Positions 24,101-61,246 of a stretch of 64,000 nt of DNA are shown in pieces. The translations under genes and the position numbers were made by a program. The notes under the pieces are model-generated. The model was not told where the DNA came from, did not search any database, and was given only the letters and a program-made list of their open reading frames with translations. Source of the DNA: Somniosus microcephalus (taxonomy: Eukaryota); contig CM126209.1 of the NCBI GenBank assembly GCA_052327205.1, positions 205,964,001 to 206,028,000 of the forward strand, in the 5' to 3' direction. Every line of letters starts with the position of its first letter. Positions within the stretch are counted from its first letter, which is position 1.

Positions 24101-25116
24101 TCCTCTGGGGTGAACCTTTTGCCCCATGTATGTCTTCAATACAATGGACGTGTCCTTTAAGGGTATGTGTGAGAATAGCCGCTCATAGTCTCGTCGATTC
24201 ATGACAGTTAGGGCTGATCCTGTGTCCAATTCCATCTTTACTGGGGACCCTGCTATCGTGAGGGTGACCCAAATGGTTCGGTGATCCTCCTTTGTGATCA
24301 CGTTGTGTAACTTTGGACAACTTAGTCTCTTGCTCCCGGAGTCCTTATCACTCTCCTGATCTTCCGAACTACTGTCTGTCAGTTTCTTTACTTTCCTGTA
24401 CTGTTCTTTAGTAGTTCTTGTCGTGCTGGTTTTCTTTCCCGACCTGCAGACTTTTGCTATATGTCCCATTTTTCCGCATTGCCTGCATACTTTGTCCTTA
24501 AACCAGCAGTCCTTCTGCTCATGGGTTGTTCTGCCGCAGCGATAGCAGTTTTCTGCTCCATACGCCATTTCGTTAGCGCTGTATTCTTGTGGTTTCTGTT
24601 GTATTTCCGCAGCTCCCCGTGCTGCTGCTTTGTAGGATACTGCCACGCTGAAAGCCTGTTCGAGCATCAGGTCCCTTTTCAAAAGTAGTCGTTTCTGGGT
24701 TCCTTCACTCTGGAGCCCGCAGATAAACTTATCCCGTAAGGTGTCTGCCAGTCCTGCTCCGAACTGGCAGTGCTTCGATAACTTGTGTAGTTCCGTAAGA
24801 TAGTCAGCATTGCTCTCATCTTTGTGCTGGTTTCTTTTATGGAACTTGAATCTTTCTGCTATCAGCAGTGGTGTAGGGCTTAGGTGTTCCTGTAAGATAT
24901 GAACAATCTCCTCAAAACTTTTCTCCATTGGTTTAGCTGGGGTAATTAAATTCCGCAATAGGCCGTACGTACTCGCGCCCATCAGATTTAATAATACCGA
25001 CGCCCTCTTTCCATCAGCCACCTCATTTGCCTTGCAGTACACTTGAATTCTTTCCACATACGTGGTCCAGTCTTCTACCTCATTGTCGAAACAGTGATAC
25101 TGCCACTTTTCGGCAT
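21200..25116 (-). pseudogene. gag-pol: gag-pol polyprotein (2x CCHC, protease LDTGS, RT YLDD, RNase H, HHCC/DDE integrase), disrupted
   Basis: ORFs 23243-25057, 21512-23188 and 21200-21463. ATG at 25116 is followed by a frameshift, with premature stops at 23243 and 21512. Confidence 0.92.
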
Positions 25117-25129
25117 CTTGGGTGATTTA

Positions 25130-33225: not shown

Positions 33226-36200
33226 TGTTGTGTATGTACCTTTAAGAGAATAACTGGTCTCAGACTGCAGTACCGGCAGTGACCACCCCTGTATAAAAGG
33301 CGCTAGAGAGCCTCGGTTGTTTAGTTTAGTTATGGACTTCCACCAGTAAACATTGTTTTCACTCCTGCTAGTCCGTGTCTAAATCATTCACGGACTTAAC
33401 ATTGGCGACGAGTAAGAAACGAACTTACCTGCAACTCAGCAGCAGCTCCGACGACGTTGTTGAAGGTCGGAGACAGAAAAAAAAAAAGAGGCCATTGAAA
33501 CTCGAGAAACGGGCGTCGACCGTCAATCATCGATTTAAAAAAATTGCAGGAGCGACTTCCAGAGCCAGGCTGGGTTCCTCGGTCCGTGGTTTCCCAGCTA
33601 ATCGGGCTGGTGGCAGGTAGTGCTCTGATCCTTCCTGGGCTGCGGCGGGCTGAAGCTCGATTGGGTGGCCTTTCAACGGGGCCGGGCAGCGAGTCGGGAA
33701 GCAAAGAGAGAGAGAGAAGGTGGAGCACACAGGGCGTGGCTGGCGTTTCGAAGCCGGGCAGCGTTCGGACCTCAGAAGAGGGAGGAAAGTGTCCCAGAGG
33801 GTCCACTCCATGACGGGAAAATAATAAAAGAAAAAGAATACGCGCAAGAAACCGTGGAAAGCAGCACTAACAACAGCGGGGAAGAAGACAAAGCGCGGGA
33901 GGCGCCATTTTGTTAAATCGGAGAAGAAGGCAAAGCGGGGGAGGCGCCATTTTAGATTTGCAAGATGCCGAAGACTGGCTGTATCACTGCTTTTGATAAT
34001 ACATTAGAGGACTGGACCACGTATGTGGAAAGAGTCAAGGTATATTTCGAGGCAAAAGAAATAGCGGAGGGGAAAAAGGCATCAATATTGCTAAACTTAA
34101 TGGGCGCTAGAACGTACGACCTATTGCGGGATCTGATTACTCCATCCAAACCGAAGGCGAAGAGTTTTAATGAAATTGTTGCTGTTCTACAGGAGCACTT
34201 AAACCCTGCACCGCTGTTGATAGCAGAAAGATTTAAATTCCACAGGAGAACTCAGCACAAACATGAGAGCAATGCTGAGTATCTTACGGAACTACATAAG
34301 CTATCAAAGCACTGCCAGTTCGGAGCAGGACTGGCAGATACCCTACGGGACAAATTTGTCTGTGGACTCCTGAGTGAAGGAACACAGAAGAAGTTACTCG
34401 CAGAAAAAGAGCTGACGCTAGATAAGGCTTTCAGCGTGGCAGTATCGTATGAAGCAGCAGCCAGGGGAGCTGCAGAAATTCAACAAAAACCACAGGAATA
34501 CGGCACCCACGAAATGACACGGGGATTTGCAAAATGTTATCGCTGCGGCAGAACTAACCATGACCAGAAGGACTGCTGGTCCAAAGACAAAATATGCAGA
34601 CAATGCGGGAAGCTTGGACACATTGCACGAGTTTGTAGGTCTGGGAAGAAGACCAGCGACAACAAAAAGGCTACTAAGGAACCGTACAAGAAAGTACAAA
34701 AGATGACGGACAGTAGTTCCGAAGACCAGATGAGCGATAGTGAATCCGGAAACAGGAGACTAAGCTGTCCCAAACTTCACAATGTAATCGCAAAAGAGGA
34801 TCACCGAACCATTTGGGTCACCCTCACGATAGCAGGGTCCCAAGTTAAAATGGAATTGGATACAGGATCAGCGCTAACCGTCATGAATCGACGAGACTAC
34901 GAGCGGCTATTTTCACACATACCCTTGAGAGAGACATCCATCGTCTTGACGACGTATACCGGGCAAAAAGTATACCCCAGAGGAAAAATAAGGGTGTCTG
35001 TCGAATACAATGGCAAGAAAATACGGAAATTGTATCTCTACATACTGCCAAATGGTGGACCACCGTTATTGGGACGGGAATGGATCAGGAAGATAAACTT
35101 AGATTGGCATTCCATTCATGCAATGACGGTGGACGGTAAAAAAGATGAAGACGTCACTCCTGGACGATTGTCAACAATCTTAGCTAACGCCAAAGAGGTA
35201 TTTCAACAAGAACTGGGCACGCTTAAAGGCGTAACCGCCTCGTTAAAAATAGAAGAGAATGCAGTTCCCAAGTTTTTCAAAGCGAGACCGGTACCATATG
35301 CAATTCGCCCAGCCGTCGAGGCAGAGCTGGAGAACCTGGAGAAGGCGGGCGTGTTGTCTAAGGTCGACTGGAGCGAGTGGGCGATACCCATCATTCCTGT
35401 CATGAAGAAAACGTTAAGCAATACGTCCGGAGAGCCAAGGAAGATTCGCATCTGTGGGGATTTCAAGGTGACGGTGAACCCTGTCCTTCACACAGTACAA
35501 TATCCTCTTCCAAGGATAGAAGACATCTTCGCCTCACTGTCTGGAGGGAAGCGTTTTACAAAAATTGACCTAGCACAAGCATATTTGCAGATGGAGGTTG
35601 AAGAGTCCTCTAGGAAGTATCTCACGATAAACACTCACAAGGGTCTTTACCAGTATCTTCGATTGGTATTCGGAGTAGCATCGGCTCCGGCGATATGGCA
35701 AAGAGCGATGGAACAAGTCCTGCAAGGGATTCCGGGGACTCAGTGTTACTTGGACGACATCCTTGTAACAGGTGAAGATGACAGTGAACACCTTAACAAC
35801 CTAGAACAGGTGCTCACTAGACTACGGGAACATGGGCTGCGAGCCAACCGCCCCAAGTGCGAATTTTTTAAGAAACAGATATCGTATTGTGGCCACGTGA
35901 TTGATGAAGAGGGGTTACATAAGTCCCCTGACAAAATTGAAGCGGTTGTTAAGGCCCCAGCGCCTGAAAATGTGTCACAACTGAGGTCATTCCTCGGGTT
36001 GGTGAATTACTATCATAAGTTTTTGCCGAATTTGTCGACAATTCTGCACCCACTGAACGCCCTGCTACGAACGGGGGTAGCATGGAAATGGAGCGATGAT
36101 TGTAAACGTGCTTTTCAGAAGAGTAAGGACTTAATCACTTCGAAGGAAGTATTGGCTCACTACAACCCAGCACTGCCAATCAGGCTGGCGTGTGATGCGT

Positions 36201-38209
36201 CTCCCTACGGCATTGGGGCGGTACTGTCACATAAATTCCTTGATGGTTTGGAGAGGCCGATAGCTTTTGCGTCACGCTCGTTAACTTCTGCCGAGCGTAA
36301 CTATGCCCAGATTGACAGAGAGGCCCTCAGCCTAGTGTGGGGTGAAGACGTTCAATCACTATCTGCACGGTCAAAAATTTACTCTACTAACCATTCATCA
36401 ACCTCTTGTCTCCATGTTCCAACCCTCAGAAGGGCGTACCGATAATGACAGCAATGGCTGCAGAGATGGTCCCTTTTCCTAGGGGCACACCAATATGACA
36501 TCGAGTACAAAGGAACTAAACAGCATGGAAATTCTGATGGATTGTCACGTCTACCGTTGCCGACGGTGGAAGAAGAAGACCTTGCAGCGGATCCAATGGA
36601 GTTATTCCACTCGACCATAGTCGAATATCTCCCTGTGACGAATGCAAACATAGAAAAGGAAACACGGAATGACCCGACACTATCACGGGTCTATGATTTA
36701 ATGGTGAAGGGATGACCAGCACATGGTGAACCACTGCTGCCAGCATTCTCACCGAGAAGACAACAGCTGTCAGTGTGCAGAGGAACCTTGATGTGTGGAT
36801 CCAGAGTAGTAATTCCACCTAAGTTGACGGATAGAGTGCTCAATGAGCTTCATGAGGGTCATCTGGGTGGGGTAAAAATGAAGAACTTAGCCAGAGCGTT
36901 TGTGTGGTGTCCGGGAATCGATAGAGAAATCGAAGAGATGACCAAGAGCTGTGCAGGTTGCCAGAAGGTCCAAAACGCCCCACCACAAGCTCCTCTGCAT
37001 CCATGGGAGTGGCCCTCATCTCCATGGCAAAAGGTGCACATTGATTTTGCTGGTCCCTTCATGGACTCGATGTTTTTAATTGCGGTGGATGCACATTCAA
37101 AGTGGCCAGAGGTAATAAAAATGTCCTCAACCACCACGGAAAAAACTATCACAGTTTTACGAACCATATTCGCCAGGAATGGGCTGCCTGAACAGATTTG
37201 CTCTGACAATGGACCACAGTTTGTGTCTGAAGAGTTCCGGAGGTTCTTAAAGAACAATGGTGTTAAGCATTACACATCTGCCCCATATCATCTAGCCACT
37301 AATGGATTGGCTGAGAGGTTTGTCCAAACATTCAAGAAGGCTATCAAGGCAATGTGTAATGAAGATATACCCCTACAACACAAGGTGGACATCTTCTTGT
37401 TTGCCTACCGGAATGCGACACATGCGGTTACCAACCAAACTCCAGCCATGATGTTCTTCAATCGAAGACTACGATGCCACTTGGATTTGGTTAAGCCAAA
37501 CGTCCGAAGAGATGTGGAGAACAGGCAGTTTCAGAATATGAATGAAAGGCCGACCAGGAGTTTTAAGATAGGTCAACCAGTTTTGGCCCGGGACTACCGC
37601 ACTGAGAAATGGCAGCCAGGAACGATTTGTACACGACAAGGACCTCTCATGTATACCGTGGACGTTGGGGAGAGCATTGTAAGACGCCATGCTGACCAGA
37701 TTCTAGAGTCACTGGAAAACGTCAACTCCACACCACGATCTGATACACCTGGTAATGAAATCGACGTTCCAATTGCAGCTACCGCAGAACCGGTAATATT
37801 GGAAGCAGATGAACCAAACAACGACATTGATTCCGACTCAACATTGCCAGAAGAACCTGTTACCCCAAAGAGGCGTTATCCAGACAGAATCAGGAAGCCT
37901 CCTCAAAGACTGAACTTATAATTGCTTAAACTTAACCACTGTATCTAGTAACAGTAATTGTGATTGTAATTCGTTATCATTTAGTTGTTAAATGAATGTT
38001 ATGTACTGTTTATCTAAAAGGGGAGGAATTGTTGTGTATGTACCTTTAAGAGAATAACTGGTCTCAGACTGCAGTACCGGCAGTGACCACCCCTGTATAA
38101 AAGGCGCTAGAGAGCCTCGGTTGTTTAGTTTCGTTATGGACTTCCACCAGTAAACATCTGTTGTTTTCACTCCTGCTAGTCCGTGTCTAAATCATTCATG
38201 GACTTAACA
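33226..38209 (+). mobile_element. Full-length Ty3/Gypsy (Mag clade), copy 2
   Basis: LTRs at 33226-33401 and 38030-38209 (2 substitutions plus a 4-bp indel), TSD GGCAC, PBS TGGCGACGAG at 33403-33412, PPT AAAAGGGGAGGAA. Confidence 0.95.
33965..37921 (+). pseudogene. gag-pol: gag-pol polyprotein, frameshifted in RNase H
   Basis: 826-aa ORF (gag, PR, RT, start of RH) plus a 382-aa integrase ORF. Frameshifts lie around 36340-36430 and there is a stop near 36713. Confidence 0.93.
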
Positions 38210-44108: not shown

Positions 44109-44481
44109 ATCATGTTTGCACTGAAGCCAGTCTGGTAACTAGACAAGAGGTAGCACTTGAATTGGGCAACAGCTTTACATTTACTATGGCTTCTATGAGC
44201 TTTAGTACAAACAGCAGTAGGAATACAGGTTGGTATCTATTGGAGTATTAGTTTGATTCCTTTTGTGGACAGAAATAGTGTTCATATTCTTTCAATCAGA
44301 TGGAAAAATATCAGTTGACTACGACATATATGTCCTTTATTTCTTGTATTCTCCTCCAGCTGAAATGACAGGCATTATAGATTTCTCCATTCAATGCTAC
44401 AGAGATTTGTGCCATAATAATCTGTATGTTTGAGTTGTTTCTATTTAGTCTTTTATAATATGTTGCAATTTTACCGATATA

Positions 44482-46813
44482 ACTAGGGCTGTAGAGAAGG
44501 CTTTAAACTAAATAGTGGAGTGGGGGGGGGCGGAGATCCAGATGAGCGGGAATTTAAGAAGTCAATGAGAAATGAGAAAACAACAGAGCAGGATAAAGAT
44601 GGGGAAAATAATAACCAGAGTGTGACACGAAGGGACAGAATGTTTAAAAATAAGAGTGCAACAGAAAATGGGGCCAAAACAAGGAGAAATGGTAAAAAGA
44701 CAAAGTTAAAAGCTCTACATCTGAATGCACGCAGCCATCGTAACAAGATAGATGAGTTGACGGCACAAATAGATACAAATGGGTATGATCTGATTGCCAT
44801 TACAGAGACATGGTTGCAAGGTGATCAGGGCTGGGAACTGAATATTCCAGGGTATCTGACAATTTGGAAGGATGGACAGAAAGGAAAGGGAGGTGGGATG
44901 GCTTTGTTGGTAAAGGATGGGATCAGTGCAGTGGTGAGAAGTGATATTGGATCAGAAGATCAAGATGTAGAATCCGTTTGGGTGGAGATAAAAAATAATA
45001 AAGTGAAAAAGTTTCTGGTGGGTATAGTCTACAGGCCCCCGAATAGTAGCAATACTGTTGGACAGAGTATAAATCAACAAAGAATGGAGGCCTGTAAAAA
45101 AGGTACGGTAATAATTGTGGGTGATTTTAATCTACATATTGATTGGACAAATCAAATTGGTCATGGTAGTCTTGAGGAGGAGTTCATAGAGTGCATCCGG
45201 GATGGTTTCCTAGAACAGTATATAATGGAACCAACCAGGGAGCAGGCTATCTTGGATCTGGTACTGTGTAATGAGACAGAATTAATAAATGATCTCATAG
45301 TAAAGGATCCTCTAGGAAAGAGTGATCATAGCATGGTTGAATTTCAAATTCAGTTGGAGGGTGAGAAAGTTGTATCTCAAACCAGTATCCTGATCTTAAA
45401 CAAAGGCAAGTACAATGAAATGAGGGCAGAACTGGCTAAAGTGGACTGGAAACATAAATTAAAGGGTAAGACAGTTGAGGAGATATTTCATAACTCTCAA
45501 CAAAAATATATTACAGTGAGAAAGAAAGATTTTAAGAGCACCATCCATGGCTAACTAAGGAAGTAAAGGATGGTATCAAATTAAGAATGAAGGCATACAA
45601 TGTTGTCAAGATTGGTGGGTGACCAAAGGATTGGAAAAAAAATTTAAAACAGCAAAGGATGACTAAAAAAATAAAAAAGAGAGAGAAGATGAATTATGAG
45701 AGAAAACTGACAAGAAACATTAAAACAGATAGAGCTTCTACAGGTATATAAAAAGGAAGAGAATAGCTAAAGTAAATGTTGGTCCCTTCGAGGATGAGAC
45801 TGGGGAATTAATAATGGAGAACGGGGAAATGGCAGAGACTCTGAACAAATATTTTGTATCTGTCTTCAGAGTAGAAGACACTAACAACATCCCAAAAATG
45901 GATAATCAAGGGGCCACAGGGAGGGGGGAACTAAAGACAATCATTATCACTAAGGAAATAGTACTTGGTAAAATAATGGGACTAAAAGACGACAAGTCCC
46001 CTGGACCAGATGGCCTGCACCCCAGGGTCTTAAAAGAAGTGGCTGCAGAGATAGTGGATGCATTGGTTGCAATATACCAAAATTCCCTGGACTCTGGAGA
46101 GGTCCCAGCGGATTGGAAAACCACAAATGTAACACACCTATTTTAAGAAAGGAGGGAGACAGAAAGCAGGAAACTATAGACCAGTTAGCCTAACATCTGT
46201 CATTGGGAAAATGCTGGGGTCCTTCATTAAGGAAGCAGTAGCAGGGCATTTGGAAAATCATAATGCAGTCAGGCAGAGTCAGCATGGTTTTATGAAAGGG
46301 AAATCATGTTTAACAAATTTGCTGGTGTTCTTTGAGGATGTAACGAATAGGGTGGACAAAGGTGAACCAGTATATGTGGTGTATTTGGATTTCCAGAAGG
46401 CATTTGATAAGGTGCCACATAAAAGGTTACTGCATAAGATAAGAGCTCATGGAATTGGGGGTAATATATTAGCATGGATAGAGAATTGGCTATTGAACAG
46501 AAAATAGAGAGTCAGGATAAATGGGTCATTTTCCAGTTGGCAAATGGTAACTAGTGGGGTGCCACAGGGATCGGTGCTGGGGCCTCAACTATTTACAATC
46601 TACATTAATAACTTGGATGAAGTGACTGAGTGTAATGTAGCCAAGTTTGTGGAAGATACAAAGATGGGTGGGAAAGCAAGTTGTGTAGAGGACTCAAAGA
46701 ATCTGCAAAGGGATATAGACAGGCTAAGTGAATGGGCAAACATTTGGCAGATGGAGTATAATGTGGGAAAGTGCGAGATTATCCACTTTTGCAGGAAAAA
46801 TAAAAAAGTAAAT
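44482..46813 (+). mobile_element. CR1 LINE copy D: ORF1 end plus decayed ORF2, 3' part missing
   Basis: APE ORF 44520-45554 and RT fragments to 46810. It ends abruptly at the LTR starting 46814 and does not resume after 48580. Confidence 0.92.
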
Positions 46814-48580
46814 TGTAGGAACGGAGGTTCCTATCAAAAGACTGAGTTCAACTCAGATAATTAAATTAATGAACTTTAATGATAACAAACGAGTTTAAAC
46901 TGGAAACTGCTAGGACACATCAATAACAGGTATATTCTCTCTGAGGACTCCACGAGGACTGATCCCCTGATCAGGAGAGTGACGTCATGACGTCATCACG
47001 TTCTTCCCGCCATTGGGGTATCACGTGACTAACGGCATGATGTCATCATGTGCTTTAAAGGTAACTGGCATTGTACAGTCAAACAGTGTAATTAAAGGTA
47101 CAGGCACAGACAGTAACTACATTGCTGTTAAAGGAATTATGTACAACCGCTCTGAGTCCTTTGGTGGCTCCGCCACATGCGCCCCCCCAGAATTGTCTTT
47201 AACAGAAAAGGTTAGGCGAGGAGGAGGCCTGATGAGCCTGTCCGATCGACTTCGATACCATACAAAGCGTTGGCCACTGAAGCAGACCTGGACCCGCCGT
47301 GTCCCACAAGTATGAATCGCACCCCCATTGGCAGCTTGGAGGGGAGAACCGCGCCTGCCGGACAGAAGGTCGAGGACTGACGCAGGAAGGATGCTGCACT
47401 GTGCCCCTGTGTCGCACAAAAAACGATGGCCCGAGATGGAGTCGGTTAAATAAAGTAGTTTTCCAGAATCGCCGATCGCCATCGTGGCTGCAGGGCACGC
47501 CCCGGAGTCGGTGTTCTTGATGCGCAGTTGCTTGTTCGGTGTTCTGGGCACGAAACTGCAAGGCGGACGGCAGCTTCTGGCCTTCACGCCAAACCGAGTG
47601 TGGTAATAACAGAAACCGGTTGTTGGAGGCGTCGAGGCAGGGCCCTTTGGGGCGGGGCGTCTCGTGACGGCGCAGTTTGTTGTCGGACCGCGTATATTTT
47701 ATCCGCCTCTTCGACGCGCGCTATGCAATCCCTGGCGTCCGATCTGGTGAGGGCCACCTGCACCTGCTCGGGCAGTTGACTGAGGAACAGTTCGCGGAAC
47801 AGGAAACATTGCGGTTCAGACCCCAGGAGTGTGAGCATCTGGCTCATCAACTCCGAAGGTTTGGAGTCTCCTAATCCGGGCAGCGTGAGTAGGTGGTGTG
47901 CGCGCTCTGCCTTCGTAAGGCCGAATTCCTGCACTAGCCGTGCCTTAATGGCGACATACTTGTCGGTGGCTGGGGGGTTCTCCAGTAGGCTGATGATCCT
48001 CGACGCCGTCGAGCTGTCGAGTGCGGAGACCACGTAAAGATAACAGGTCTGATCCTGCACGACATTGCGGAGCTCGAACTGCGCCTCCGCTTGTACGAAT
48101 CAGGAGGCCGCCTGTTGCTCCCAAAATTGGGGGAGCTTCAAAGCCACTGTGTTGGCTTCCATCAGGGCCCTGCGTACCGTTTCCGCTGCGAAGAACGTCC
48201 GCGAGGATTCGGGGTCATCAATGTAGGAGTGCTTGAACTCCTAACGAAAGTACTGAGACTGAAACTAGCAGTTAACCAAACGTGGTTTAATGCACTAGTA
48301 AAAGTTACAAACAAAAGCGCAGGAGAAACTCTATACAGGTCTGTACACCAACTGGTTCCACGAGGACAGAGGGGGAACACCTCTCCCCTCTGACGTCATG
48401 ACATCATCACGTTTCCCACCGTTGGGAACATCATGTGACCTGCGTGATGACGTCATCGCGCTGGATCGCCATTTTACCGAACCCGTGCTGTTAATACAGA
48501 GCAAACACTTAAAGGTAACAAGCCCCTGTTAAAGGCAATTATATACATTACTGCAAGAGTCTCTTGGTGGCTTTGCCACA
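46814..48580 (-). mobile_element. Non-autonomous CsRN1-type Gypsy (gag + protease only) with two dissimilar LTRs
   Basis: LTR-like blocks TGTAGGA...GCCACA at 46814-47177 and 48222-48580, a degenerate tRNA-Trp PBS (TGATGACCCCGA, 48220-48209), and a PPT at 47178-47190. gag starts at 48162, protease motif FLCDTGA is present, then the sequence jumps to the integrase tail (YRSRSDRLIRPPPRL). No TSD. Confidence 0.85.
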
Positions 48581-48790: not shown

Positions 48791-50166
48791 TGTTGTGTAT
48801 GTACCTTTAAGAGAATAACTGGTCTCAGACTGCAGTACCGGCAGTGACCACCCCTGTATAAAAGGCGCTAGTAAGCCTCTGTAGTTTCAGTTTCCCGATT
48901 GACTCCTTTCAGTAAAGACTTGTTTTGTTCAACTCCTGCTGTCCGTGTCTCAATCATACATGGACATAATACTGGCGACGAGCAGATACGAACTTACCTA
49001 CAGTCTGCACCACCTCCTGGGATCCATTCCTGAAGCGAAGTGAGCAGAGGTCGAGGCCAGAAGGAAGAAAGAAGCAGTAGAAATGGGCATCGACCGTGGG
49101 CATCCACCCCTGTGTTAGCGGAGTTGAAGATTGCTGGAGAAGCTGTCGAAAGCGGGGCCTGGTACCTGTCGACGTTGCTTCAGCTAATCGGGCTGGTGGC
49201 AGGTAGCACACTGATCCTTCCTGGGCTGCGGCGGTCGCGAACTCGAGCGGGTTGCTTGCAACGGGGCCGAGCAGCATTGTCGGGAAGAGGAGAGAGAGAG
49301 GGTGGAGCACACAGGGCGCGGCCGGTGCTACGAAGCCGGGCTGCGTATAGACCCGAGAAGAGGGAGGCAAGAGTCCCACAGGGTTGTTCCACGACAGAAA
49401 ATTAATTAAAAAAAGAAATATTAAACGCGCAGGAAACTGCAAGGAGCTGCAGGTTGCAACGGAAACCGCGGAAAGCAGCGCTAGCAACAGCGGGGAAGAA
49501 GGCAAAGCGTGGGAGGCGCCATCTTAATCAGCGGGGAAGAAGGAAAAGCGTGGGAGGTGCCATTTAGTTAAATCGGGGAAGAAGGCAAAGCGCGGGAGGC
49601 GTCATTTTGATTTTCAAGATGCCGAAGACTGGCTGTATCACTGCCTTTGATAATACAATAGAGGACTGGACCACGTATGTGGAAAGTGTCGAGGTATATT
49701 GCGAGGCAAACGAAATAGCCGATGAGAAAAAGGCATCGGTATTGCTAAACTTAATGGGTGCTAGAACGTACGGCCTGTTGCGGGACCTGATTACTCCAGC
49801 CAAACCGAAGGCGAAGAGTTTTAACAAAATTGTTGCTGTCCTACAGGAACACCTAAACCCTGCACTGCTGTTGATAGCAGAAAGATTTAAATTCCACAGG
49901 AGAACTCAGCATAAAGATGAGAGCAATGCTGAGTACCTTACGGAACTACGCAAGCTATCAAAGTACTGCCAGTTCGGAGCAGGACTGACAGATACCCTAC
50001 GGGACAAATTTGTCTGTGGACTCCTGAGTGAAGGAACACAGAAACATAGAAACATAGAAACATAGAGATAGGAACAGGAGTAGGCCATTCGGCCCTTCGA
50101 GCCCGCTCCGCCATTCAATGAGATCATGGCTGATCTTCGTCTGAGATCATAGCTGATCTTACCAGT

Positions 50167-53076
50167 TCAGTACCCCGTCCCCGCCTTTTCTCCGTAACCC
50201 TTAATCCCCTTAGCCTTCAGAAATATATCCAATTCTCTCTTGAAAATATTTATTGAATTAGCCTTCGCAGCCCTCTGTGGCAGGGAATTCCACAGGCTCA
50301 CCACTCTTTGAGTGAAGAAATTCTTCCTCATCTCTGTTTTAAATGATTTGCCCGCTATTTTTAGACTGTGGCCCCTGGTTCTGTGCTCCCCGGCCATTGG
50401 AAACATTCTCTCTGAATTCAGCCTGTCCAGGCCTGCCATAATTTTATATGTTTCGATGAGATCCCCTCTCAATCTTCTAAACTCCAGTGAGTACAAGCCC
50501 AAACTATTTAATCTCTCTTCGTAGGTCATTCCCGCCATTACAGGTATCAGCCTGGTGAATCGCCGTTGCACTCTTTCCATGGCAAGAACATCCTTCCGCA
50601 GATGGGGCGACCAAAACTGTACACAATACTCCAGATGCGGTCTCACCAGCACCTTGTACAGCTGTGGTAAGGTATCCCTATTCCTATACTCGAACCCCCT
50701 TGATATGAAGGCCAACATACCATTTGCCTTCTTAATCGCCTGTTGCACCTGCATGCTCTCCTTCAGTGACTGGTGCACAAGAACACCCAGGTCCCTCTGC
50801 ACTTCCCCATCTCCCAATCTATTGCCATTTAGATAATAATCTACCCTCCTGTTTTTACCCCCAAAGTGGATAACCTCGCATTTATCCACATTATAGTGCA
50901 TCTGCCACGTATCCGCCCATTCCCCCAACCTGTCCAAATCGCACTGTAGCCTCCTGACATCCTCATCAGAGCCCACCCCTCCTCCTAGTTTAGTGTCGTC
51001 AGCGAATTTGGAAATATTGCATCCAATTCCCTGATCCAGATCATTTATATATATTGTGAACAGCTGGGGTCCCAGGACAGATCCTTGCGGCACCCCGCTG
51101 GTCACTGCCTGCCACTCCGAAAACGAGCCGTTTATTCCAACTCTCTGTTTTCTATCCGCCAGCCAGTTCTCTATCCACGTTAATACTTTGCCCCCAATCC
51201 CATGAGCCTTAATTTTGCATGATAATCTTTTGTGTGGAATCTTATCGAAGGCTTTCTGGAAGTCAAGGTACACCACATCCACTGGCTCTCCCCCATCTAT
51301 TTTACCAGTTACTTCCTCAAAAAATTCCAGCAGATTAGTCAAACACGATTTACCCTTTGTAAATCCATGTTGACTCTGTCCGATCCTTTCCCCATTTGTC
51401 AAGTGCTCCGCTATTTTATCCTTAATAATGGACTCTAGCATTCTGCCCACAACCGATGTAAGGCTTACTGGTCTATAATTCCCTGCTTTCTCTCTACCCC
51501 CCTTTTTAAATATTGGGGTAACATTAGCTACCCTCCAATCCACGGGTACTGTTCCCGAGTCAATGGAGTTCCGGAAGATGATCCTTAGAGCATCTGCTAT
51601 CTCCAGGGCCACCTCCTTAAGTACCCTAGGATGTAGTTTATCAGGCCCCGGGGATTTGTCGGCCTTCAGTCCCCTCAACTTACCCAGCACCATATCCCTA
51701 GAGATACTAATTTCTGTCAGCTCCTCCCTCTCATTAGTCCCTATGTTTGCCGATATTCCTGGGAGGTTATTTGTGTCCTCCTTTGTGAATACAGAACCAA
51801 AGTATGAGTTTAATTGGTCTGCCATTTCCTTATTCTCCATTATATATTCTCCCGAATCGGACTGCAAGGGACCGACTTGGGATTTTACCAGTCTTTTCCT
51901 CCTGATATACCGATAAAAGCTTTTGCAGTCTGTCTTTATGTTTGCTGCAAGTTTACTTTCGTATTCTATTTTCCCCTTCCTGATTAATCCCTTTGTCCTC
52001 TTTTGCTGTATCTTGTACTGCCCCCAATCTTCCGGTCTGGTGCTTTTTTTTGCCAGTTGATATGCCCTTTTTTTTGATTTTATGCTGTCCCTAATTTCCC
52101 TCGTTATCCACGGTTGAGTCACCTTTTTAGGTTTATTTTTGTGCCAAACCGGTATAAACATGTTCTGGAATTCTTCCATTCTATCTTTGAATGCTTGCCA
52201 TTGTCTATCCACTGTCAATCCCCCCAGAAACACCACCCAATCAATCTTACCCAATTCCCGTCTCATACCCTCGTAATTCCCTTTATTTAAGTTCTGGACC
52301 TTAGTCTCTGATTCAATTTCCTCACTCTCCATCTCGACTGAGAGCTCGATCATATTATGATCGCTCTGACCCAAGGGGCCTCGTACAAGAAGATTGCTGA
52401 TAAGTCCCTTCTCATTGCACAATACCCAGTCTAAAATGGCCTGATCTCGAGTCGGCTCCTCGACATATTGGTCCAGATAACCGTCCCGAAAACATTCCAG
52501 GAATTCCTCCTCCTCAGAATTTTTACTAGTTTGGGTAGTCCAATCAATATGTAAATTAAAGTCACCCATGATGACAGCTGTGCTCTTATCGCACGCTTCT
52601 CTAATTTCCCTTTTTATGCCTTCCCTCACCTCCATATTACTATTTGGAGGCCTATATATCACACCCACTAACGTTTTCCTCCCCTTGCTATTTCTCATTT
52701 CTACCCATACAGATTCCGTTTCATCCGAGATAATATCCTTCCTTTCCATTGCATTAATCCCCTCCTTTACCAGCAATGCTACCCCACCTCCCCTACCTTT
52801 TTGCCGATCCTTCCTAAATATTGTATATCCCTGGATGTTAAGTTCCCAGCCTTGCCCACCCTGCAGCCACGTTTCTGTAATCCCAATCAAATCATACTTG
52901 TTTACCTCTATTTCCACAACTAATTCATCCACCTTGTTCCTAATGCTTCTAGCATTAAGATACAAAGCCTTCAGGCTTGCTTTTTTCACACTCTCATTAT
53001 GAATTAGTTTGGCCCTTTGTGTTTCTCTCCTTTGCTTATTGCTTCTCACCTTTCTACCATCTATTTCTGACTTCAT
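50167..53076 (-). CDS. CR1 ORF2 (APE endonuclease + reverse transcriptase), 969 aa, uninterrupted
   Basis: YLNARSIRNK, GITETW, GDFN, SDHN, YLDFQKAFD, GVPQGSVLGP and FADD are all in one frame. Confidence 0.93.
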   Translation of the reverse strand: MKSEIDGRKVRSNKQRRETQRAKLIHNESVKKASLKALYLNARSIRNKVDELVVEIEVNKYDLIGITETWLQGGQGWELNIQGYTIFRKDRQKGRGGGVALLVKEGINAMERKDIISDETESVWVEMRNSKGRKTLVGVIYRPPNSNMEVREGIKREIREACDKSTAVIMGDFNLHIDWTTQTSKNSEEEEFLECFRDGYLDQYVEEPTRDQAILDWVLCNEKGLISNLLVRGPLGQSDHNMIELSVEMESEEIESETKVQNLNKGNYEGMRRELGKIDWVVFLGGLTVDRQWQAFKDRMEEFQNMFIPVWHKNKPKKVTQPWITREIRDSIKSKKRAYQLAKKSTRPEDWGQYKIQQKRTKGLIRKGKIEYESKLAANIKTDCKSFYRYIRRKRLVKSQVGPLQSDSGEYIMENKEMADQLNSYFGSVFTKEDTNNLPGISANIGTNEREELTEISISRDMVLGKLRGLKADKSPGPDKLHPRVLKEVALEIADALRIIFRNSIDSGTVPVDWRVANVTPIFKKGGREKAGNYRPVSLTSVVGRMLESIIKDKIAEHLTNGERIGQSQHGFTKGKSCLTNLLEFFEEVTGKIDGGEPVDVVYLDFQKAFDKIPHKRLSCKIKAHGIGGKVLTWIENWLADRKQRVGINGSFSEWQAVTSGVPQGSVLGPQLFTIYINDLDQGIGCNISKFADDTKLGGGVGSDEDVRRLQCDLDRLGEWADTWQMHYNVDKCEVIHFGGKNRRVDYYLNGNRLGDGEVQRDLGVLVHQSLKESMQVQQAIKKANGMLAFISRGFEYRNRDTLPQLYKVLVRPHLEYCVQFWSPHLRKDVLAMERVQRRFTRLIPVMAGMTYEERLNSLGLYSLEFRRLRGDLIETYKIMAGLDRLNSERMFPMAGEHRTRGHSLKIAGKSFKTEMRKNFFTQRVVSLWNSLPQRAAKANSINIFKRELDIFLKAKGIKGYGEKAGTGY

Positions 53077-53123
53077 ATGACTTCCCTCTTTTCCACTACC
53101 TAGGTTCCCATCCCCCTGCCAAA

Positions 53124-53280
53124 TTAGTTTAAATCCTCCCGAACCGCCCTAGAAAATATTACCCCGAGGACATCGGCTCCCTCACAGTTCAGGTGTAGAC
53201 CGTCCCCTTGGTACAGGTCACTCCTCCCCAGGAACTGGTTCCAATGCCTCAAGAATTTAAATCCCTCTCCCTTGCACCTT
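53124..53280 (-). pseudogene. CR1 ORF1 C-terminal fragment (SGNH esterase-like domain)
   Basis: Manual translation RCKGEGFKFLRHWNQFLGRSDLYQGDGLHLNCEGADVLGVIFSRAVREDLN*, with the DGLH block-V motif. Confidence 0.8.
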
Positions 53281-53959
53281 AACAGAAGAAGTTAACTCTC
53301 AGAGAAAGAGCTGACGCTAGATAAGGCTTTCAGCGTGGCAGTATCGTACGAAGCAGCAGCCAGGGGAGCTGCAGAAATACAACAAAAGCCACAGGAATAC
53401 GGCACCCACGAAATGACACGGGGATTTGCAAAATGTTATCGCTGCGGCAGAACTAACCATGACCAGAATGACTGCTGGTCCAAGGACAAAATATGCAGGC
53501 AATGCGGAAAGATGGGACACATTGCACGAGTTTGCAGGTCTGGGAAGAAGACCAGCGACAACAAAAAGGCTACTAAGGAACCGTACAAGAAAGTACAAAA
53601 GATGACGGACAGTAGTTCCGAAGACCAGATGAGCGATAGTGAATCCGGGAACGGGAGACTAAGCTGTCTCAAACTTCACAATGTAATCACAAAAGAGGAT
53701 CACCGAACCATTTGGGTCGCCCTCACGGTAGCAGGGTCCCAAGTTAAAATGGAATTGGATACAGGATCAGCGCTAACCGTCATGAATCGACGAGACTACG
53801 AGCGGCTATTCTCACACATACACTTGAGAGAGACATCCATCGTCTTGACGACGTATATGGGGCAAAAAGTATACCCCAGAGGAAAAATAAGGGTGCCTGT
53901 CGAATTCAACGGCAAGAAAATACGGAAATTGTATCTCTACATTCTGCAAAATGGTGGAC

Positions 53960-56900
53960 TGTGGCGGATCGCCACCTAAACGGGCGCAATCCACTTTTCC
54001 GTCCGTGGACAATAAATCGGGCACCTCGCCTTTAAGAAGCATGCTGCCTTTAAGGCATGACAAAGGAGCGGGCGTCGTCCTCAGTGTGTACTCAAAAGTG
54101 CGGGTGTCGCCCTCAGGCTGTTTTCGGGTTTAGCAGAGAGAGGAGCTGGGGCAGCCATCTCTCAAGAGAATGTAATAAAAGCCATGTGTTCCTCAGATCG
54201 GTTCGGCCTCCATTCGTGTTCCGCGGCAGCCGCAACATTGGTGACCCCGACGCTCAGAACGTATTCCGAGCACTGCAATGGCGGACACGAACGCAGTTTC
54301 CGTGAAACTGCCGGAGTTTTGGGAAAACCAGCCCGAAGCCTGGTTCCTCCAAGCTGAGCCCCAATTCCGGCTGCGACACATCACCACAGATGGGACGAAT
54401 ATTGACTACCTCGTCGCATCACTTGGTATCTCCACAGTCACGAAGGTCTGGATAGCGCTGCAGAACTCAGCAGAGGAGGGCAAGTATGCACATCTTAAGG
54501 CCGCGCTCCTTAAAAAATTTACGACCTCGACATACCAGCGAAACTGCCGCCTCCTCGACCTTCCAGGCCTCGGTGACGCCTCACCGTCAGACCTCCTCTC
54601 CCACATGCTCTCACTCACCGACGAGAGCCCACCCGGGTCCCTCTTCCGCACGCTGTTCATCCGCCAGCTACCTCCCAGCATCCGTCCAGCGATCGTGGCG
54701 TCCGGCCTCACGGACCTAGAAGCCCTGGCCGACGAGGCCGACAAGCTGCTGTCCACTCACTCCAGCCACAACGTCGCTCCGGACCTGGCAGCCACAGCCT
54801 GGGCGCGCCCCTCACCGGCCACCACACGGCCACAAGGCATTGCCACGGGGCCCACGGGGCCTTCGCGCCCTACAGACCCGGGCTACTGTTACTACCACGC
54901 ACGGTTCGGCACCAGGGCACAACGGTGCACACCTCCCTGCTCCTTCAAGTCCGCCCCCGTACCAGCCCCCGCGATGGCCGTGGGCCACGCGGGCTACCTG
55001 CTGTACGTCACGGATGACAAAACCGGCCGCCGGTTCCTGTGCGACACTGGAGCTCAGCACAGCATCATCCCGGCCTCCGCCCTCGACATCCAAAAGGGCG
55101 AATGAGGACAGGCGCTGGCTGCCGCTAACGGCTCGGACATCCGGACGTATGGCACCCGCACAGTCACCCTCGACCTCGCTGGTCGCCGCTACCGATGGGA
55201 GTTCATCACTGCCAAGGTACTCTCCCCTCTCATCGGCGCAGACTTCCTGTGCGCCCACGGCCTACTGGTAGACATCCCTCGACACCGCCTCGTGGACATG
55301 AACACCATGTCTCCCATCCTGGGCGCCATGGCCCCCCGTCAACCCGCCGACATGGCGTCACAGTGCCACGCCCGGGCCACGGATGACTACTCGGCACTGC
55401 TGGCCGAATTCCCGGCCCTCACCAACCCGACCTTCTCCGCGGAGGTCGCCAAACACGGGGTGGAACACTTCATCCCCACCACAGGCCCACCAGTGTACGC
55501 CCACGCCCGCAGGCTGGACCCGGCCAAACTGGAGGTCGCGCGCACCGAGTTTGCCACGATGGAACAGCTCGGCATCATCCGCCGCTCCAACAGTCCCTGG
55601 GCCTCCCCACTCCACATCGCCCCCAAACCAGGCGGGGGTTGGCACCCCTGCGGGGATTACCGCCGCCTCAACGATGCCACCACCCCTGATCGGTACCCCG
55701 TGCCGCACATTCAGGACTTCTCGGCTAGACTGGCCGGCCGCTCAGTCTTTTCCAAAGTTGACCTGGTGCGCGGCTACCACCAAGTCCCCGTCCACCCCGC
55801 GGACGTCCCCAAGACAGCCGTAATCACCCCCTTCGGGCTTTTCGAGTTCCTGCGGATGCCCTTCGGCCTCAAAAATGCGGCCCAGGCATTCCAACAGCTC
55901 ATGGACTCGGTCCTTCGGGACCTGAAGTTCCTGTTCGTCTACCTGGACGGCATCCTGGTAGCCAGTTCCTCCAAGCAGGAACACCTCGAACACCTCGCAT
56001 CCTGTTCGGGTGCCTCAGCGACCACGGGCTCATCCTCAGCCCAGCCAAGTGCCAGTTCGGCCTGGACAAGATCGACTTCCTCGGCCACCACATCACCCAT
56101 GCTGGGGCCATTCCCCTGCCCACCAAGGTGCAGGCCGTCCAGCAATTTCCCTGCCCCACCACCATCAAAGGACTCCAGGAGTTCCTCGGGATGGTGAATT
56201 TCTACAACCGCTTCATCCCCAAAGCGGCATCCCTCATGAAGCCCCTGTATGAAGCCCTCCAGGGCAGGAGCGGCAAGATGGCGGTCGAATGGACGGCAGA
56301 CGTATCAGCCGCCTTCAACTCCACCAAGACCGCGCTCACCGACGCCACCCTGCTCGCGCAGCCACGGCCCAATGCCAGAGTAGCTCTCAACACGGACGCC
56401 TCCGACCACGCGGTCGGCGCCGTGTACGAGCAGTGGGTCGACGGCGCCTGGCAACCACTTGCCTTCTTCAGCCGCCAACTACGCCCCCCGGAGGACAAGT
56501 ACAGCACCTTCGACCGCGAGCTCCTCGCGCTGTACCTGGCGGTCCGCCATTTTCGGTTTTTGCTGGAGGGCCACCCCTTCACTGCGTTTGTCGACCACAA
56601 ACCCCTGACATTCGCAATGGCAAAGACAACCGACCCCTGGTCCGCCAGGCAGCAGCGCCAGCTCGCGGCAGTGTCCGAGTTCACCACGGACATCCAACAC
56701 GTCTCCGGCCGAGACAACGTGGTAGCCGACTGCCTCTCCCACCCCGCCATCCACGCCGCACACCTGGCAGTCGACTACACTCAACTCGCAGCAGACCAGC
56801 TCACGGACCCTAATCTGCTCTCCGCACCTACCAACCTACCAGGGCTACGCCTGGCCGACGTCGCCTGCGGCCCGACCGCAGTCACGGTCAAGTGCGACAT

Positions 56901-58387
56901 ATCCCTATCTCAACCTCGGCCCGTCGTCCCAGCGTCCTGGCGCCGCCGGGTATTCGAGATTCTCCACAACCTCTCCCACCCCGGCGCCCGCGCATCCATC
57001 AAATTGGTAGCCAACCGCTTTGTCTGGCGCGGCCTTCGCAAGGATGTGCGTACTTGGGCCAACTCCTGCCTAGCCTGCCAACGGGCCAAGGTGCAGCAAC
57101 ACACGAAAGCACCCCTCGAGGAGTTCACCATCCCTTCACGTAGATTCGACCACATCCACGTGGACATCGTCAGGCCCCTGCCGCCGTCGCAAGGCCACAC
57201 GCACTTGCTGACGATCGTCGACCGCACTACGCGCTGGCCCGAGGCAATTCCACTGACCTCTACCACCACCGCCGACATCGCCAGGGCCTTCGTCAGCACC
57301 TGGATCACACGGTTCGGCGTCCCCTCCGACATGACGTCGGACAGAGCTCCGCAATTTACCTCTGAACTCTGGACCGCCATCGCACGCAATCTCGGGGTGA
57401 CCATTCACCGCACCACAGCGTACCACCCCCAAGCCAACGGACTGTGTGAGCGGTTCCACAGATCCTTGAAGGCATCTCTTCGAGCCAGCCTCCAGGACGG
57501 CACCTGGACCGACCGACTCCCGTGGGTCCTCCTCGGCCTGCGCTCCGCGGTTAAAGAAGACCTCCACGCATCGGCAGCAGAGGTCGTGTACGGCCAGCCG
57601 CTGCGCGTACCCGGCGAGTTCCTGCCCACCGCCACGACACCCTGGTCAGCCGACCAGCAACGCCACGACTTCGCCTCACCGGCGCTACAGTGCACCCCGG
57701 TGCCCATTGCCCGGCACGGCGAATCCACCTCACACGTCCCGCTAAGCCTGCACCAGGCATGGTTCGTTTTCGTCCGGCACGATGCCCACCACGGACCCCT
57801 TCAACCCCCGTACGACGGGCCCTACAAGATGCTACAGGCTGGGGACAAATTTTTCGACCTACAAGTGGGCGACAGGACTGAAAAAGTGTCGGTTGACCGA
57901 CTCAAGCCAGCACACTCGGAGCCCGGTGAGCAGGTCCCAGTAGCTCGTCCACCGCCACGCAGCCGACCTGCCCTCAAGCCAGTACACCCGGCTGCTCCAC
58001 GGCCGGCCGTTCCACGTCCACCGGCGTCCTACAAGAGCCGTTCCGGCCGGCCCATCAGACCGCCGCACCGTCTCGTCCACACCTCCTAAGCGGATTCTGG
58101 GGGGAGCTGTGTGGCGGATCGCCACCTAAACGGGCGCAATCAACTTTTCCGTCCGTGGACAATAAATTGGGCACCTCGCCTTTAAGAAGCATGCTGCCTT
58201 TAAGGCATGACAAAGGAGCGGGCGTCGTCCTCAGTGTGTACTCAAAAGCGCGGGTGTCGCCCTCAGGCTGTTTTCGGGTTTAGCAGAGAGAGGAGCTGGG
58301 GCAGCCATCTCTCAAGAGAATGTAATAAAAGCCATGTGTTCCTCAGATCGGTTCGGCCTCCATTCGTGTTCCGCGGCAGCTGCAACA
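53960..58387 (+). mobile_element. Full-length CsRN1-type Ty3/Gypsy nested in copy 3
   Basis: 278-bp LTRs at 53960-54237 and 58110-58387 (4 mismatches), TSD GGAC, tRNA-Trp PBS TGGTGACCCCGACG at 54239-54252, PPT TCTGGGGGGAG. Confidence 0.95.
54278..58089 (+). pseudogene. gag-pol: Single-ORF gag-pol (CHCC gag motif, PR, RT, RH, INT) with one stop, one frameshift and a YLDG active site
   Basis: VKLPEFW..PEAWF, CYYHARFG..AQRC..PC and LCDTGA are present. TGA at 55103-55105 is in frame with 55292, and there is a frameshift near 55995. The integrase ORF 56128-58089 ends with a GPY motif. Confidence 0.92.
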
Positions 58388-61246
58388 GGACCACTGTTAT
58401 TGGGACGTGAATGGATCAGGAAGATAAGCTTAGATTGGCACTCCATTCATGCAATGACGGTGGATGGTAAAAAAGATGAAAACGTCACTCCTGGACGATT
58501 GTCAACAATCTTAGCTAACGCCAAAGAGGTATTTCAACAAGAACTGGGCACTCTTAAAGGCGTAATCACCTCGATAAAAATAGAAAAGAATGCAATTCCC
58601 AAGTTTTTCAAAGTACCATATGCAATTCGCCCAGCCGTCGAGGCAGAGCTGGAGAATCTGGAGAAGGCAGGCGTGTTGTCTAAGGTCAACTGGAGCGAGT
58701 GGGCGACACCCATCGTTCCTGTCATAAAGAAAACGTTAAGCAATAAGTCTGAGGAGCCAAGGAAGGTTCATATCTGTGGGGATTTCAAGGTGACGGTGAA
58801 CCCAGTCCTTCACACAGTACAATATCCTCTTCCAAGGATAGAAGACATCTTCGCCTCACTATCTGGAGGGAAGCGTTTTACAAAAATTGACCTAGCACAA
58901 GCATATTTGCAGATGGAGGTTGAAGAATCCTCTAGGAAGTATCTCACGATAAACACTCACAAAGGTCTTTACCAGTATCATCGATTGGTATTCGGAGTAG
59001 CATCGGCTCCGGCGATATGGCAAAGAGCGATGGAACAAGTCCTGCAAGGGATTCCGGGGACTCAGTGTTACTTGGACGACATCCTTGTGACAGGTGAAGA
59101 TGACAGTGAACACCTTAACAACCTAGAACAGGTGCTCACTAGACTACGGGAACATGGGCTACGAGCCAACCGCCCCAAGTGCGAGTTTTTTAAGAAACAG
59201 ATATCGTATTGTGGCCACGTGATTGATGAAGAGGGGTTACATAAGTCCCCTGACAAAATTGAAGCGGTTGTTAAGGCCCCAGCGCCTGAAAATGTGTTGC
59301 AACTGAGGTCATTCCTCAGAGTGGTGAATTACTATCATAAGTTTTTGCCGAATTTGTCGACAATTCTGCACCCACTGAACGCCCTACTACGAACGGGAGT
59401 AGCATGGAAATGGAGCAATGACTGTAAGCGGGCCTTTCAGAAGAGTAAGGACATAATCACTTCAAAAGAAGTATTGGCTCACTACAACCCAGCACTGCCG
59501 ATCAGACTGGCGTGTGATGCGTCTCCCTACGGCATTGGGGCGGTACTGTCACATAAATTCCTTGATGGTTTAGAGAGGCCGATAGCTTTTGCGTCATGCT
59601 TCTTAACTTCTGCCGAGTGTAACTACGCCCAGATTGACAGAGAGGCCCTCAGCCTAGTGTGGAGGGTGAAGAAGTTCAATCACTACCTGCACGGTCAAAA
59701 ATTTACTCTACTAACCGATCATCAACCTCTTGTCTCCATTTTCAATCTTCAGAAGGGTGTACCGATAATGACAGCGCAACGGCTGCAGTGGTGGTCCCTT
59801 TTCCTAGGGGCACACCAATATGACATCGAGTACAAAGGAACTAAACAGCATGGAAATTCTGATGGATTGTCACGCCTACCGTTGCCGACGGTGGAAGAAG
59901 AAGACCTTGCAGTGGATCCAATGGAGTTATTCCACTCGAACATAGTCGAATGTCTCCCTGTGACGAATGCAAACATAGAAAAGGAAACACGGAATGACCC
60001 GACACTATCACAGGTCTATGATTTAATGGTGAAGGGATGGCCAGCACATGGCGAACCACTGCTGCCAGCATTCTCGCCGAGAAGAGAACAGCTGTCAGTG
60101 TGCAGAGGAACTTTGATGTGTGGATCCAGAGTAGTAATTCCACCTAAGTTGACGGATAGAGTGCTCAATGAGCTTCATGAGGGTCATCTGGGTGGGGTAA
60201 AAATGAAGAACTTAGCCAGAGCGTTTGTGTGGTGGCCGGGAATCGATAGAGAAATCGAAGAGATGACCAAGAGCTGTGCAGGATGCCAGAAGGTCCAAAA
60301 CGCCCCACCACAAGCTCCTCTGCATCCATGGGAGTGGCCCTCATCTCCATGGCAAAGGGTGCACATTGATTTTGCTGGTCCCTTCATGGACTCGATGTTT
60401 TTAATTACGGTGGATGCACATTCAAAGTGGCCAGAGGTAATAAAAATGTCCTCAACCACCACAGAAAAAACTATCACAGTTTTACGAACCATATTCGCCA
60501 GGAATGGGCTGCCTGAACAGATTTGCTCTGACAATGGACCACAGTTTGTGTCTGAAGAGTTCCGGAGGTTCTTAAAGAACAATGGTGTTAAGCATTACAC
60601 ATCTGCCCCATATCATCCAGCCACTAATGGATTGGCCGAGAGGTTTGTTCAAACATTCAAGAAGGCTATCAAGGCAATGTGTAATGAAGATATACCCCTA
60701 CAACACAAGGTGGACAACTTCTTGTTTGCCTACCGGAATGCGACACATGCGGTTACCAACCAAACTCCAGCCATGATGTTCTTCAATCGAAGACTACGAT
60801 GCCGCTTGGATTTGGTTAAGCCAAACGTCCGAAAAGATGTGGAGAACAGGCAGTTTCAGAATATGAATGAAAGGCCGACCAGGAGTTTTAAGATAGGTCA
60901 ACCAGTTTTGGCCCGGGACTACCGCACTGAGAAATGGCAGCCAGGAACGATTTGTACACGGCAAGGACCTCTCATGTATACCGCAGACGTTGGAGAGAGC
61001 ATTGTAAGACGCCATGCTGACCAGATTCTAGAGTCACTGGAAAACGTCAACTCCACACCACGATCTGATACACCTGGCAATGAAATCGACGTACAAATTG
61101 CAGCTACCGCAGAATCGGTGATATTGGAAGCAGATGAACCAAACAACGACATTGATCCCGACTCAACCTTGCCAGAAGAACCTGATACCCCAAAGAGGCG
61201 TTATCCAGACAGAATCAGGAAGCCTCCTCAAAGACTGAACTTATAA
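58388..61246 (+). pseudogene. pol: pol (RT-RNase H-integrase) of Gypsy copy 3, open frame but disconnected from gag
   Basis: Near-identical to copy 2 pol with YLDD. It has a 9-bp in-frame deletion near 58612. Confidence 0.9.

Follow-up and report, generated by a model that had tools for sequence, protein, structure and literature searches.

How bicistronic LINE RNAs make their ORF2 protein is an open question, and CR1, abundant in vertebrates, is one of the principal LINEs in birds, reptiles and cartilaginous fish. The question arises concretely in a 64,000-nt stretch of the Greenland shark (Somniosus microcephalus) genome, hereafter the window, where a CR1 copy (copy D) ends its ORF1 on a slippery heptamer with an adjoining stop codon and continues into ORF2 one base back. 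How do ribosomes reach ORF2 at such a junction?

The earlier note on this DNA had placed the heptamer in the ORF1 register of copy D, directly before TAA, and both the sequence and its translation agree (Table 1). From the heptamer, the −1 frame of copy D reads FKLNSGVGGGGDPDEREFKKSM, which is, as the note had also said, the frame of ORF2; the full stop-to-stop ORF spans 44487–45554, and position 44520, from which the note had counted it, is only its first GTG. TTTAAAC occurs at seven sites on the two strands of the window and is directly followed by a stop only in copies C and D. The start of copy D at 44479 lies 23 nt 5′ of the heptamer, and 37 of the 39 other genomic matches listed cover query positions 180–601, which likewise begin at 44479. 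Copy D is 90.8% identical over 2381 nt to the D-lineage locus L190 (BLASTN). Because it is 5′-truncated and its ORF2 lies in four pieces (44487–45554, 45733–46146, 46133–46507 and 46508–46864), copy D is a dead relic of its lineage's master element, itself incapable of frameshift or fusion synthesis.

Table 1. Features of CR1 copies D and C in the window (positions count from the first letter of the window).
Feature	Position	Strand	Detail
CR1 LINE copy D	44479..46814	+	5′-truncated, 3′ side interrupted, ORF2 broken
End of ORF1 (SGNH esterase), ~10 codons and stop, ITRAVEKALN then stop	44479..44511	+	translation
Slippery heptamer U_UUA_AAC (TTTAAAC), in ORF1 register	44502..44508	+	register AGG GCT GTA GAG AAG GCT TTA AAC TAA
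ORF1 stop TAA, adjoining the heptamer 3′ end	44509..44511	+	translation
G-rich tract, candidate linear stimulator	44517..44535	+	G9 at 44522-44530; G7 in modal D form
−1 frame: linker and APE endonuclease of ORF2	44502..45554	+	Pfam PF03372, residues 75-276, E 4.5e-13
First in-frame AUG of ORF2 in copy D; absent from some lineages	44565..44567	+	sequence
CR1 copy C: ORF1 tail, open 993-aa ORF2 (APE and RT), 3′ hairpin, 8-nt tandem tail	50034..53283	-	
Heptamer TTTAAAC of copy C (young lineage)	53133..53127	-	then TAA at 53126-53124

The nature of the element is clear from its relatives. In D relatives, ORF1 extends upstream of copy D's break, ending in DGLHLNHAGARVLANRITRAVERALN and a stop, and the SGNH esterase motifs of the C-lineage ORF1 are also visible in it. 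The C-lineage ORF1 encodes a 312-aa protein that is rich in Cys at its N-terminus and contains an SGNH esterase domain (Pfam PF13472, E 5e-13). Copy C itself has 14 other genomic matches at 99–100% identity, with its open ORF2 frame at 50167–53148 on the minus strand, and CR1 ORF2 carries the APE endonuclease and reverse transcriptase (RT) by Pfam (PF03372, PF14529 and PF00078). CR1 LINEs end in a 3′ hairpin and a short tandem tail instead of poly(A). Copy C carries an 8-nt unit four times (50035–50066), 3′ hairpins of −14.7 to −23.5 kcal/mol were found in 10 elements, and D-lineage elements also have short-repeat tails. Since D relatives run upstream into ORF1 and the C-lineage ORF1 carries the SGNH esterase, the site marks the point where ORF1 meets ORF2 in esterase-type vertebrate CR1 LINEs. 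Canonical vertebrate CR1 as set out in sections of PMC13343379 and PMC3905857 has the same SGNH-esterase ORF1, APE and RT ORF2 and short-repeat 3′ end, and the copies described here belong to it.

The genome of the window measures 6.4 Gb, with the closest named ORF1 homologues coming from sharks and rays, and it offers thousands of junctions for comparison. A genome-wide pattern search for the ORF1 motif DGLHL alone gave 32,227 matches (3,174 in the control). The same motif followed at a fixed distance by Leu-Asn-stop in any codons gave 20,227 and by exactly TTTAAAC-TAR 19,045, with 0 and 2 matches in reversed-pattern controls. Because genomic copies are not independent, we compared lineage groups besides raw counts (135 of 162 junctions, sorted into 36 groups, with many singletons of the same lineages). 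The terminal Leu of ORF1 was TTA in 32 of the 32 groups having Leu, against four to five codons in use for Leu at codons 3, 5 and 13 and a background of TTA in 29/182 Leu codons and AAC in 45/121 Asn codons; the T preceding TTA was kept under Ala, Gly and Asp codons. The earlier note had proposed comparing the heptamer with nearby third positions, a comparison that bears out the Leu codon and less so the AAC that follows it: several other third positions of the ORF1 tail are nearly fixed in this genome (His4 CAC 35/36, Asn6 AAC 33/34, codon 18 T 34/36, codon 23 G 35/36), so that AAC alone is weak evidence for a shift-site constraint. Four-fold endonuclease sites are near saturation between lineages (identical at 10/23 between C and D, 6/17 between D and F and 4/15 between C and the metagenome locus L203, all small numbers). 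Across 24 representatives chosen among site-bearing copies (16 Greenland shark-genome loci and 8 metagenome contigs), TTAAAC never varies, and 23 also have the first T. The stop after the heptamer is TAA or TAG in this genome and TGA in metagenome locus L208. From this pattern of conservation, the junction reads as a real, deeply conserved recoding-like signal.

Conservation of this kind might also arise if ORF1p needs its C-terminal Leu-Asn and the bases persist by descent and inter-lineage exchange, ORF2 being made in some other way. L341 and N342 are indeed invariant columns in 21 ORF1 proteins, and a mosaic lineage carries an F-type ORF1 tail on an E-type linker at the junction; yet this reading would leave unexplained the choice of codons, the scarcity of stops in a single frame (see below), the phase and the recurrence of these bases in bird/reptile-like loci and in others far more remote, which makes it very improbable. 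The mosaic was seen as an observation in its own right at five loci of contig C1 (L088, L098, L123, L124 and L130), where the switch falls just before the heptamer; the four that reach codon 45 have GTG in place of ATG45, suggesting exchange of ORF1 at the junction.

Phase was examined in an unselected sample of 96 motif matches lying within the initial 7.7 Mb of contig C1, taken with the junction ignored. The heptamer was present in 74 of the 96; of the 22 matches lacking it, 3 were RT-domain matches and most others showed single changes, deletions or interruptions. ORF2 was in phase with the heptamer in 52 of the 61 unselected copies with a detectable endonuclease motif, and the first 30 codons held 30 stops in the ORF2 frame against 161 in the 0 frame and 149 in the +1 frame (2220 codons each). 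Among representatives, picked with open linkers, linker lengths were 135, 138, 150, 165, 171, 174, 180, 198, 207 and 258 nt, all multiples of 3. The linkers of C and D had been described as unalignable, and BLASTN similarity between the two copies does start only at 44694, where the endonuclease begins.

The register was also followed within lineages, where the downstream G-run varies in length. The earlier note's expectation that the G-run keeps ORF2 in frame across D-lineage copies was borne out by the mode: in the first 100 of 355 genome-wide matches, the heptamer-to-anchor length was 36 nt, which is in frame, in 53 copies, shorter in 9 and longer in 38, with 64 in frame overall. The 47 non-modal copies fall 11, 18 and 18 by phase, and out-of-frame copies amount to 36/100 in D and 48/100 in the sister lineage c4. 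The D spread is what a G7 master followed by one-sided expansion of the G-run would give. In c4 the modal length is in frame (27/100, and 52/100 in frame overall), and sister lineage c8, with a stable G5, keeps the frame in 23 of 26 copies with a locatable stop (30 fetched). Because G-runs expand one-sidedly after insertion, the mode and not the majority column is the right register statistic. The column-majority consensus, which we rejected as misleading, was out of frame when built from 50 D copies enriched for long G-runs, and likewise when built from 5 c4 copies. D copies chosen by likeness to copy D were in frame in 13/30 cases and those chosen by an ORF1 40-mer in 15 of 27 (30 picked), the two sets sharing at least 2 copies. 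Copy D itself is in frame partly by luck, since its G-run region is 9 nt longer than the lineage mode (anchor offset 37 vs 28). A linker stop in c8 that looked like a counter-example was dropped, as the variant occurs in 2 copies, the sole carriers among 30.

Runs of this kind also raise the idea that the frames are joined in RNA, by splicing, by transcriptional slippage at a G or A run, or by editing. G-runs flanking the heptamer easily change length in DNA copies, and some F/H copies gained an upstream G; on the other side, C and D lack the upstream G-run, and 4264 and 6748 RNA reads over the C junction in two RNA-seq runs gave no indels or splice joints listed at a 2% threshold, a weak observation given reads from many copies and both strands. 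For the same reason, these reads show neither a bicistronic mRNA nor translation. We give RNA-level joining hardly any credence. The F/H copies in question (L079, L086, L090 and L144) have one extra G in the G-run upstream of the heptamer, which puts ORF1 in frame with ORF2 and is probably a post-insertion mutation.

Start codons were a second point of the earlier note, which had taken a differently placed first AUG in C and D as a sign that selection acts on the shift site rather than on a start codon. Counted from the heptamer, the first AUG is placed much alike (codon 20 in C, 22 in D and 19 in modal D), and it differs only when counted from the endonuclease motif (38 vs 51 codons). The C–D comparison leaves an AUG start possible, because in both an in-frame AUG sits 54–63 nt from the heptamer. 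Support for the note's proposal comes instead from lineages F, G and the GTG form of E, which have no in-frame AUG before the endonuclease motifs. In lineage F the first Met is residue 179 in 12 of the 17 copies, inside the endonuclease, where it aligns to the MGDFN motif of the L1 endonuclease, far into the domain. Two F copies, L117 and L146, have an open 975-codon ORF2 with first Met 179; the 5 remaining of the 17 have an earlier private Met, which in two lies before the endonuclease. Relative to its sister H, F has a 15-nt in-frame gap at the position of H's Met44. In lineage G the first Met falls at 131–214 in 3/3 copies, and in part of lineage E GTG replaces ATG45, leaving the first Met at 140. 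AUG loss alone proves nothing, since L1 makes ORF2p without needing its AUG (as stated in parts of PMC11485995 and PMC5009743). Judged on these sequences, lineage F nonetheless does much to decide against an AUG start. One further F copy, L112, likewise open over 975 codons, carries G_TTA_AAC where the heptamer should stand and has an in-frame ATG of its own at codon 10.

These data bear most directly on termination–reinitiation, the main rival, in which ribosomes would restart near the ORF1 stop, either AUG-independently as in L1 or at UAAUG as in SART1, with the heptamer and G tract as a reinitiation signal. The precedent comes from LINEs themselves, as SART1 reinitiates at UAAUG and L1 is described as reinitiating in passages of PMC3708506, PMC10275272 and PMC11485995. 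An in-frame AUG precedes the endonuclease in C, D, H, the ATG form of E, c4, c7, c8, L202, L203 and L210, and restarting right at the stop, one base back, would likewise require an open −1 frame; moreover, no classical frameshift structure was found (see below). Yet viral TURBS sites have stop and start within ~20 nt, according to a passage of PMC10275272, and the in-frame AUGs of this genome's lineages lie at least 44 nt past the stop or are absent. Among 19 representatives, an ORF2 AUG overlapping the ORF1 stop or within ~20–30 nt of it was found only in L202 (2 nt after the stop). In addition, the first AUG encountered is often out of frame: the first one after the stop is so in C, F, H and G, in strong context. 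Reinitiation would finally leave unexplained why an X_XXY_YYZ word stands in register with a fixed TTA and preceding T, and on balance we consider it unlikely.

Because ORF1 ends on the heptamer and stop, ORF2 lies one base back and some lineages have no start codon before the enzyme core, the CR1 enzyme is likely made by a −1 slip. Programmed −1 frameshifting at the junction, giving an esterase–endonuclease–RT fusion, is thus the explanation that we expect to hold. A minority of ribosomes would slip back one base on U_UUA_AAC and continue into an ORF1–ORF2 fusion comprising zinc finger, esterase, linker, endonuclease and reverse transcriptase, whereas the majority would terminate at the codon that follows, releasing ORF1p. 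If so, ORF1p and ORF2p would be made in a ratio set by a conserved −1 site, which would also tie the RT to ORF1p in one chain, like retroviral Gag-Pol, and CR1 ORF2 proteins annotated from their first Met would be mis-started.

We looked for the signal beyond this genome. Of 49 motif-bearing ORF1 homologues, 37 (sharks, rays and turtles) finish on xLN, 26 residues past the motif. In metagenomes, where 15 of 34 loci were inspected, TTTAAAC stands at the ORF1 end of seven (L202, L203, L205, L207, L208, L211 and L214) and GTTAAAC at that of L210; the remaining inspected loci stop short of the junction, break off within it (L201) or prove to be unrelated SGNH genes. The −1 frame runs into the endonuclease in L202, L203, L208, L210 and L211, and L211 keeps LN-stop despite a longer ORF1 tail. 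We take L202, L203, L205, L207, L208 and L214 to be bird/reptile-like, since they resemble a turtle query and chicken CR1. L210 and L211 branch apart in a small endonuclease-fragment tree built from the loci of this study. The bird/reptile-like and the distant metagenome loci share the heptamer, its phase and a G5 tract 10 nt 3′ of it. No related junction was found in viral contigs, and only bacterial SGNH proteins were found in prokaryote genome contigs.

Several protein records touch on the same junction. P0078 (the sole match) and P0029 (from near-length matches) read the esterase directly into FKL... and the endonuclease. We did not count these naturally fused long proteins as support for frameshifting, because they are single ray gene models and could be indel copies; the record name of P0078, 'hydroxyacid oxidase 2 isoform X1', is probably a wrong annotation. 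The protein P0071, a distant ORF1 homologue, ends in HSKN, a tail that an A_AAA_AAC heptamer could encode. P0012, a CR1 ORF1 homologue at 59% identity, is labelled as a Pseudomonas aeruginosa SGNH hydrolase, likely through host DNA contamination of the record.

What could stimulate a slip at this site? Downstream of the heptamer, G occupies offsets 17–21 from the heptamer start in 96, 96, 88, 91 and 83% of the 24 representatives, a G5 starting 10 nt after the heptamer. The first GGGG stands at offset 17 in 17 of 27 representatives and at 14–15 in 6, and is absent in 4. The G5 begins on the third base of a codon for Q, G, K, L, W or S; at codon 7, which follows, 19 of 21 Gly are written GGG, vs 63/205 in the background. 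No local stem-loop was found 3′ of the heptamer in 10 elements (folding z −1.83 to +2.10, quadruplexes excluded), the region being rich in purines and offering little to pair with. We rejected base-pairing between the G tract and the 3′ tail of the element for want of covariation (10 elements, matched vs mismatched p 0.37); it beat shuffles in one of the 10 (C, p 0.013), and the tail forms its own hairpin. The best mean upstream pairing site for the G tract is the CCLPG codons of ORF1, ~410 nt upstream, again with no covariation (p 0.54 in 21 representatives and p 0.56 in 22). Two-tier G-quadruplexes were placed by ViennaRNA in most elements, with z < −2 in only 2 of 10, both with expanded runs. 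With no stem-loop and no covarying long-range partner found, the canonical 3′ structure is not the stimulator. The pause would most likely come from the stop codon and the linear G tract, protein-bound or as a weak G-quadruplex, and not from a stem-loop or pseudoknot. As a separate observation, in L082, L092, L132 and L136 (c7, c11, c13 and c23) the 20–42 nt past the heptamer pair with CCLPGA codons ~410 nt upstream at −23 to −33 kcal/mol (shuffle p ≤ 0.035); this long complementarity is missing in D, c4 and the bird/reptile-like loci.

Known shift sites offer both likeness and difference. Few heptamers shift as readily as U_UUA_AAC on mammalian ribosomes, and the coronavirus IBV (U_UUA_AAC) and equine arteritis virus (G_UUA type) use the same heptamer class, L210 showing the G_UUA_AAC form, according to sections of PMC5009743. 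The viral U_UUA_AAC sites described there have a 3′ structure after a spacer of 5–9 nt, whereas in CR1 none was found and the stop immediately adjoins the heptamer. By analogy, the CR1 junction would work like a viral −1 site, but one without the canonical 3′ structure. Closer in layout is the PRRSV nsp2 site, where nsp1-beta and PCBP act on CCCANCUCC 11 nt 3′ of the shift site without RNA structure (same source, in part). CR1 shares with it a linear low-complexity motif at a similar fixed distance, but the CR1 motif is G-rich and the heptamer another one, so that the likeness we see is positional only. Natural use of a G-quadruplex for frameshifting was 'not currently known' to this 2016 review, in the passages that treat it. 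More tentatively, CR1 elements from sharks to bird/reptile types may make a Gag-Pol-like fusion by a cassette of their own, consisting of U_UUA_AAC, an immediate stop, 7 nt and a G5 that would act as a linear protein-bound or G-quadruplex stimulator. The cassette spans ~40 nt, and its type of stimulator may be new.

Frameshifting has precedent among LINEs. A −1 frameshift is stated as needed for ORF2 of the Dictyostelium elements TRE5-A and TRE3-A (a passage of PMC5911963), which are also APE-type LINEs but differ from CR1 in lineage and ORF1, and a frameshift is stated for HeT-A (a passage of PMC5009743). For CR1, the word 'frameshift' is absent from the main texts of PMC13343379, PMC11303007 and PMC3905857; the main text of PMC13343379 gave 0 matches for 'slippery', 'overlap' and 'start codon', and the ORF2 translation mode is not addressed in the portions of PMC13343379 and PMC3905857 that treat the element. 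Across the literature on CR1 and LINE frameshifting, judged mostly from listings and with CR1 papers of the 1990s outside the coverage, we found no description of the heptamer junction. The 1997 papers on chicken and turtle CR1 may mention the ORF overlap. L1, SART1 and zebrafish ZfL2-1 are likewise bicistronic LINE RNAs with unusual ORF2 translation, ORF2 of ZfL2-1 reportedly being made by stop-codon suppression (Kajikawa, 2012). The parts of the literature that treat L1 and SART1 describe no counterpart of the CR1 heptamer.

Other repeats surround these copies. The 5′ end of copy C adjoins an inverted Gypsy fragment (window 53283–54240) that is 96% identical to 34384–35060 and 99% identical to 58110–58387. 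ORFs of Gypsy-type LTR retrotransposons (RT, RNase H, protease and integrase) lie at 21512–25126, 33956–37921, 55762–58089 and 58211–61246 of the window. Tandem repeats occur in the CR1 5′ region upstream of ORF1 in L033 (1–700, element orientation), L004, L009 and L012. Finally, two CR1 3′ ends stand in tandem on the minus strand of the window (9099–9184 and 9241–9330), one degenerate and one intact.
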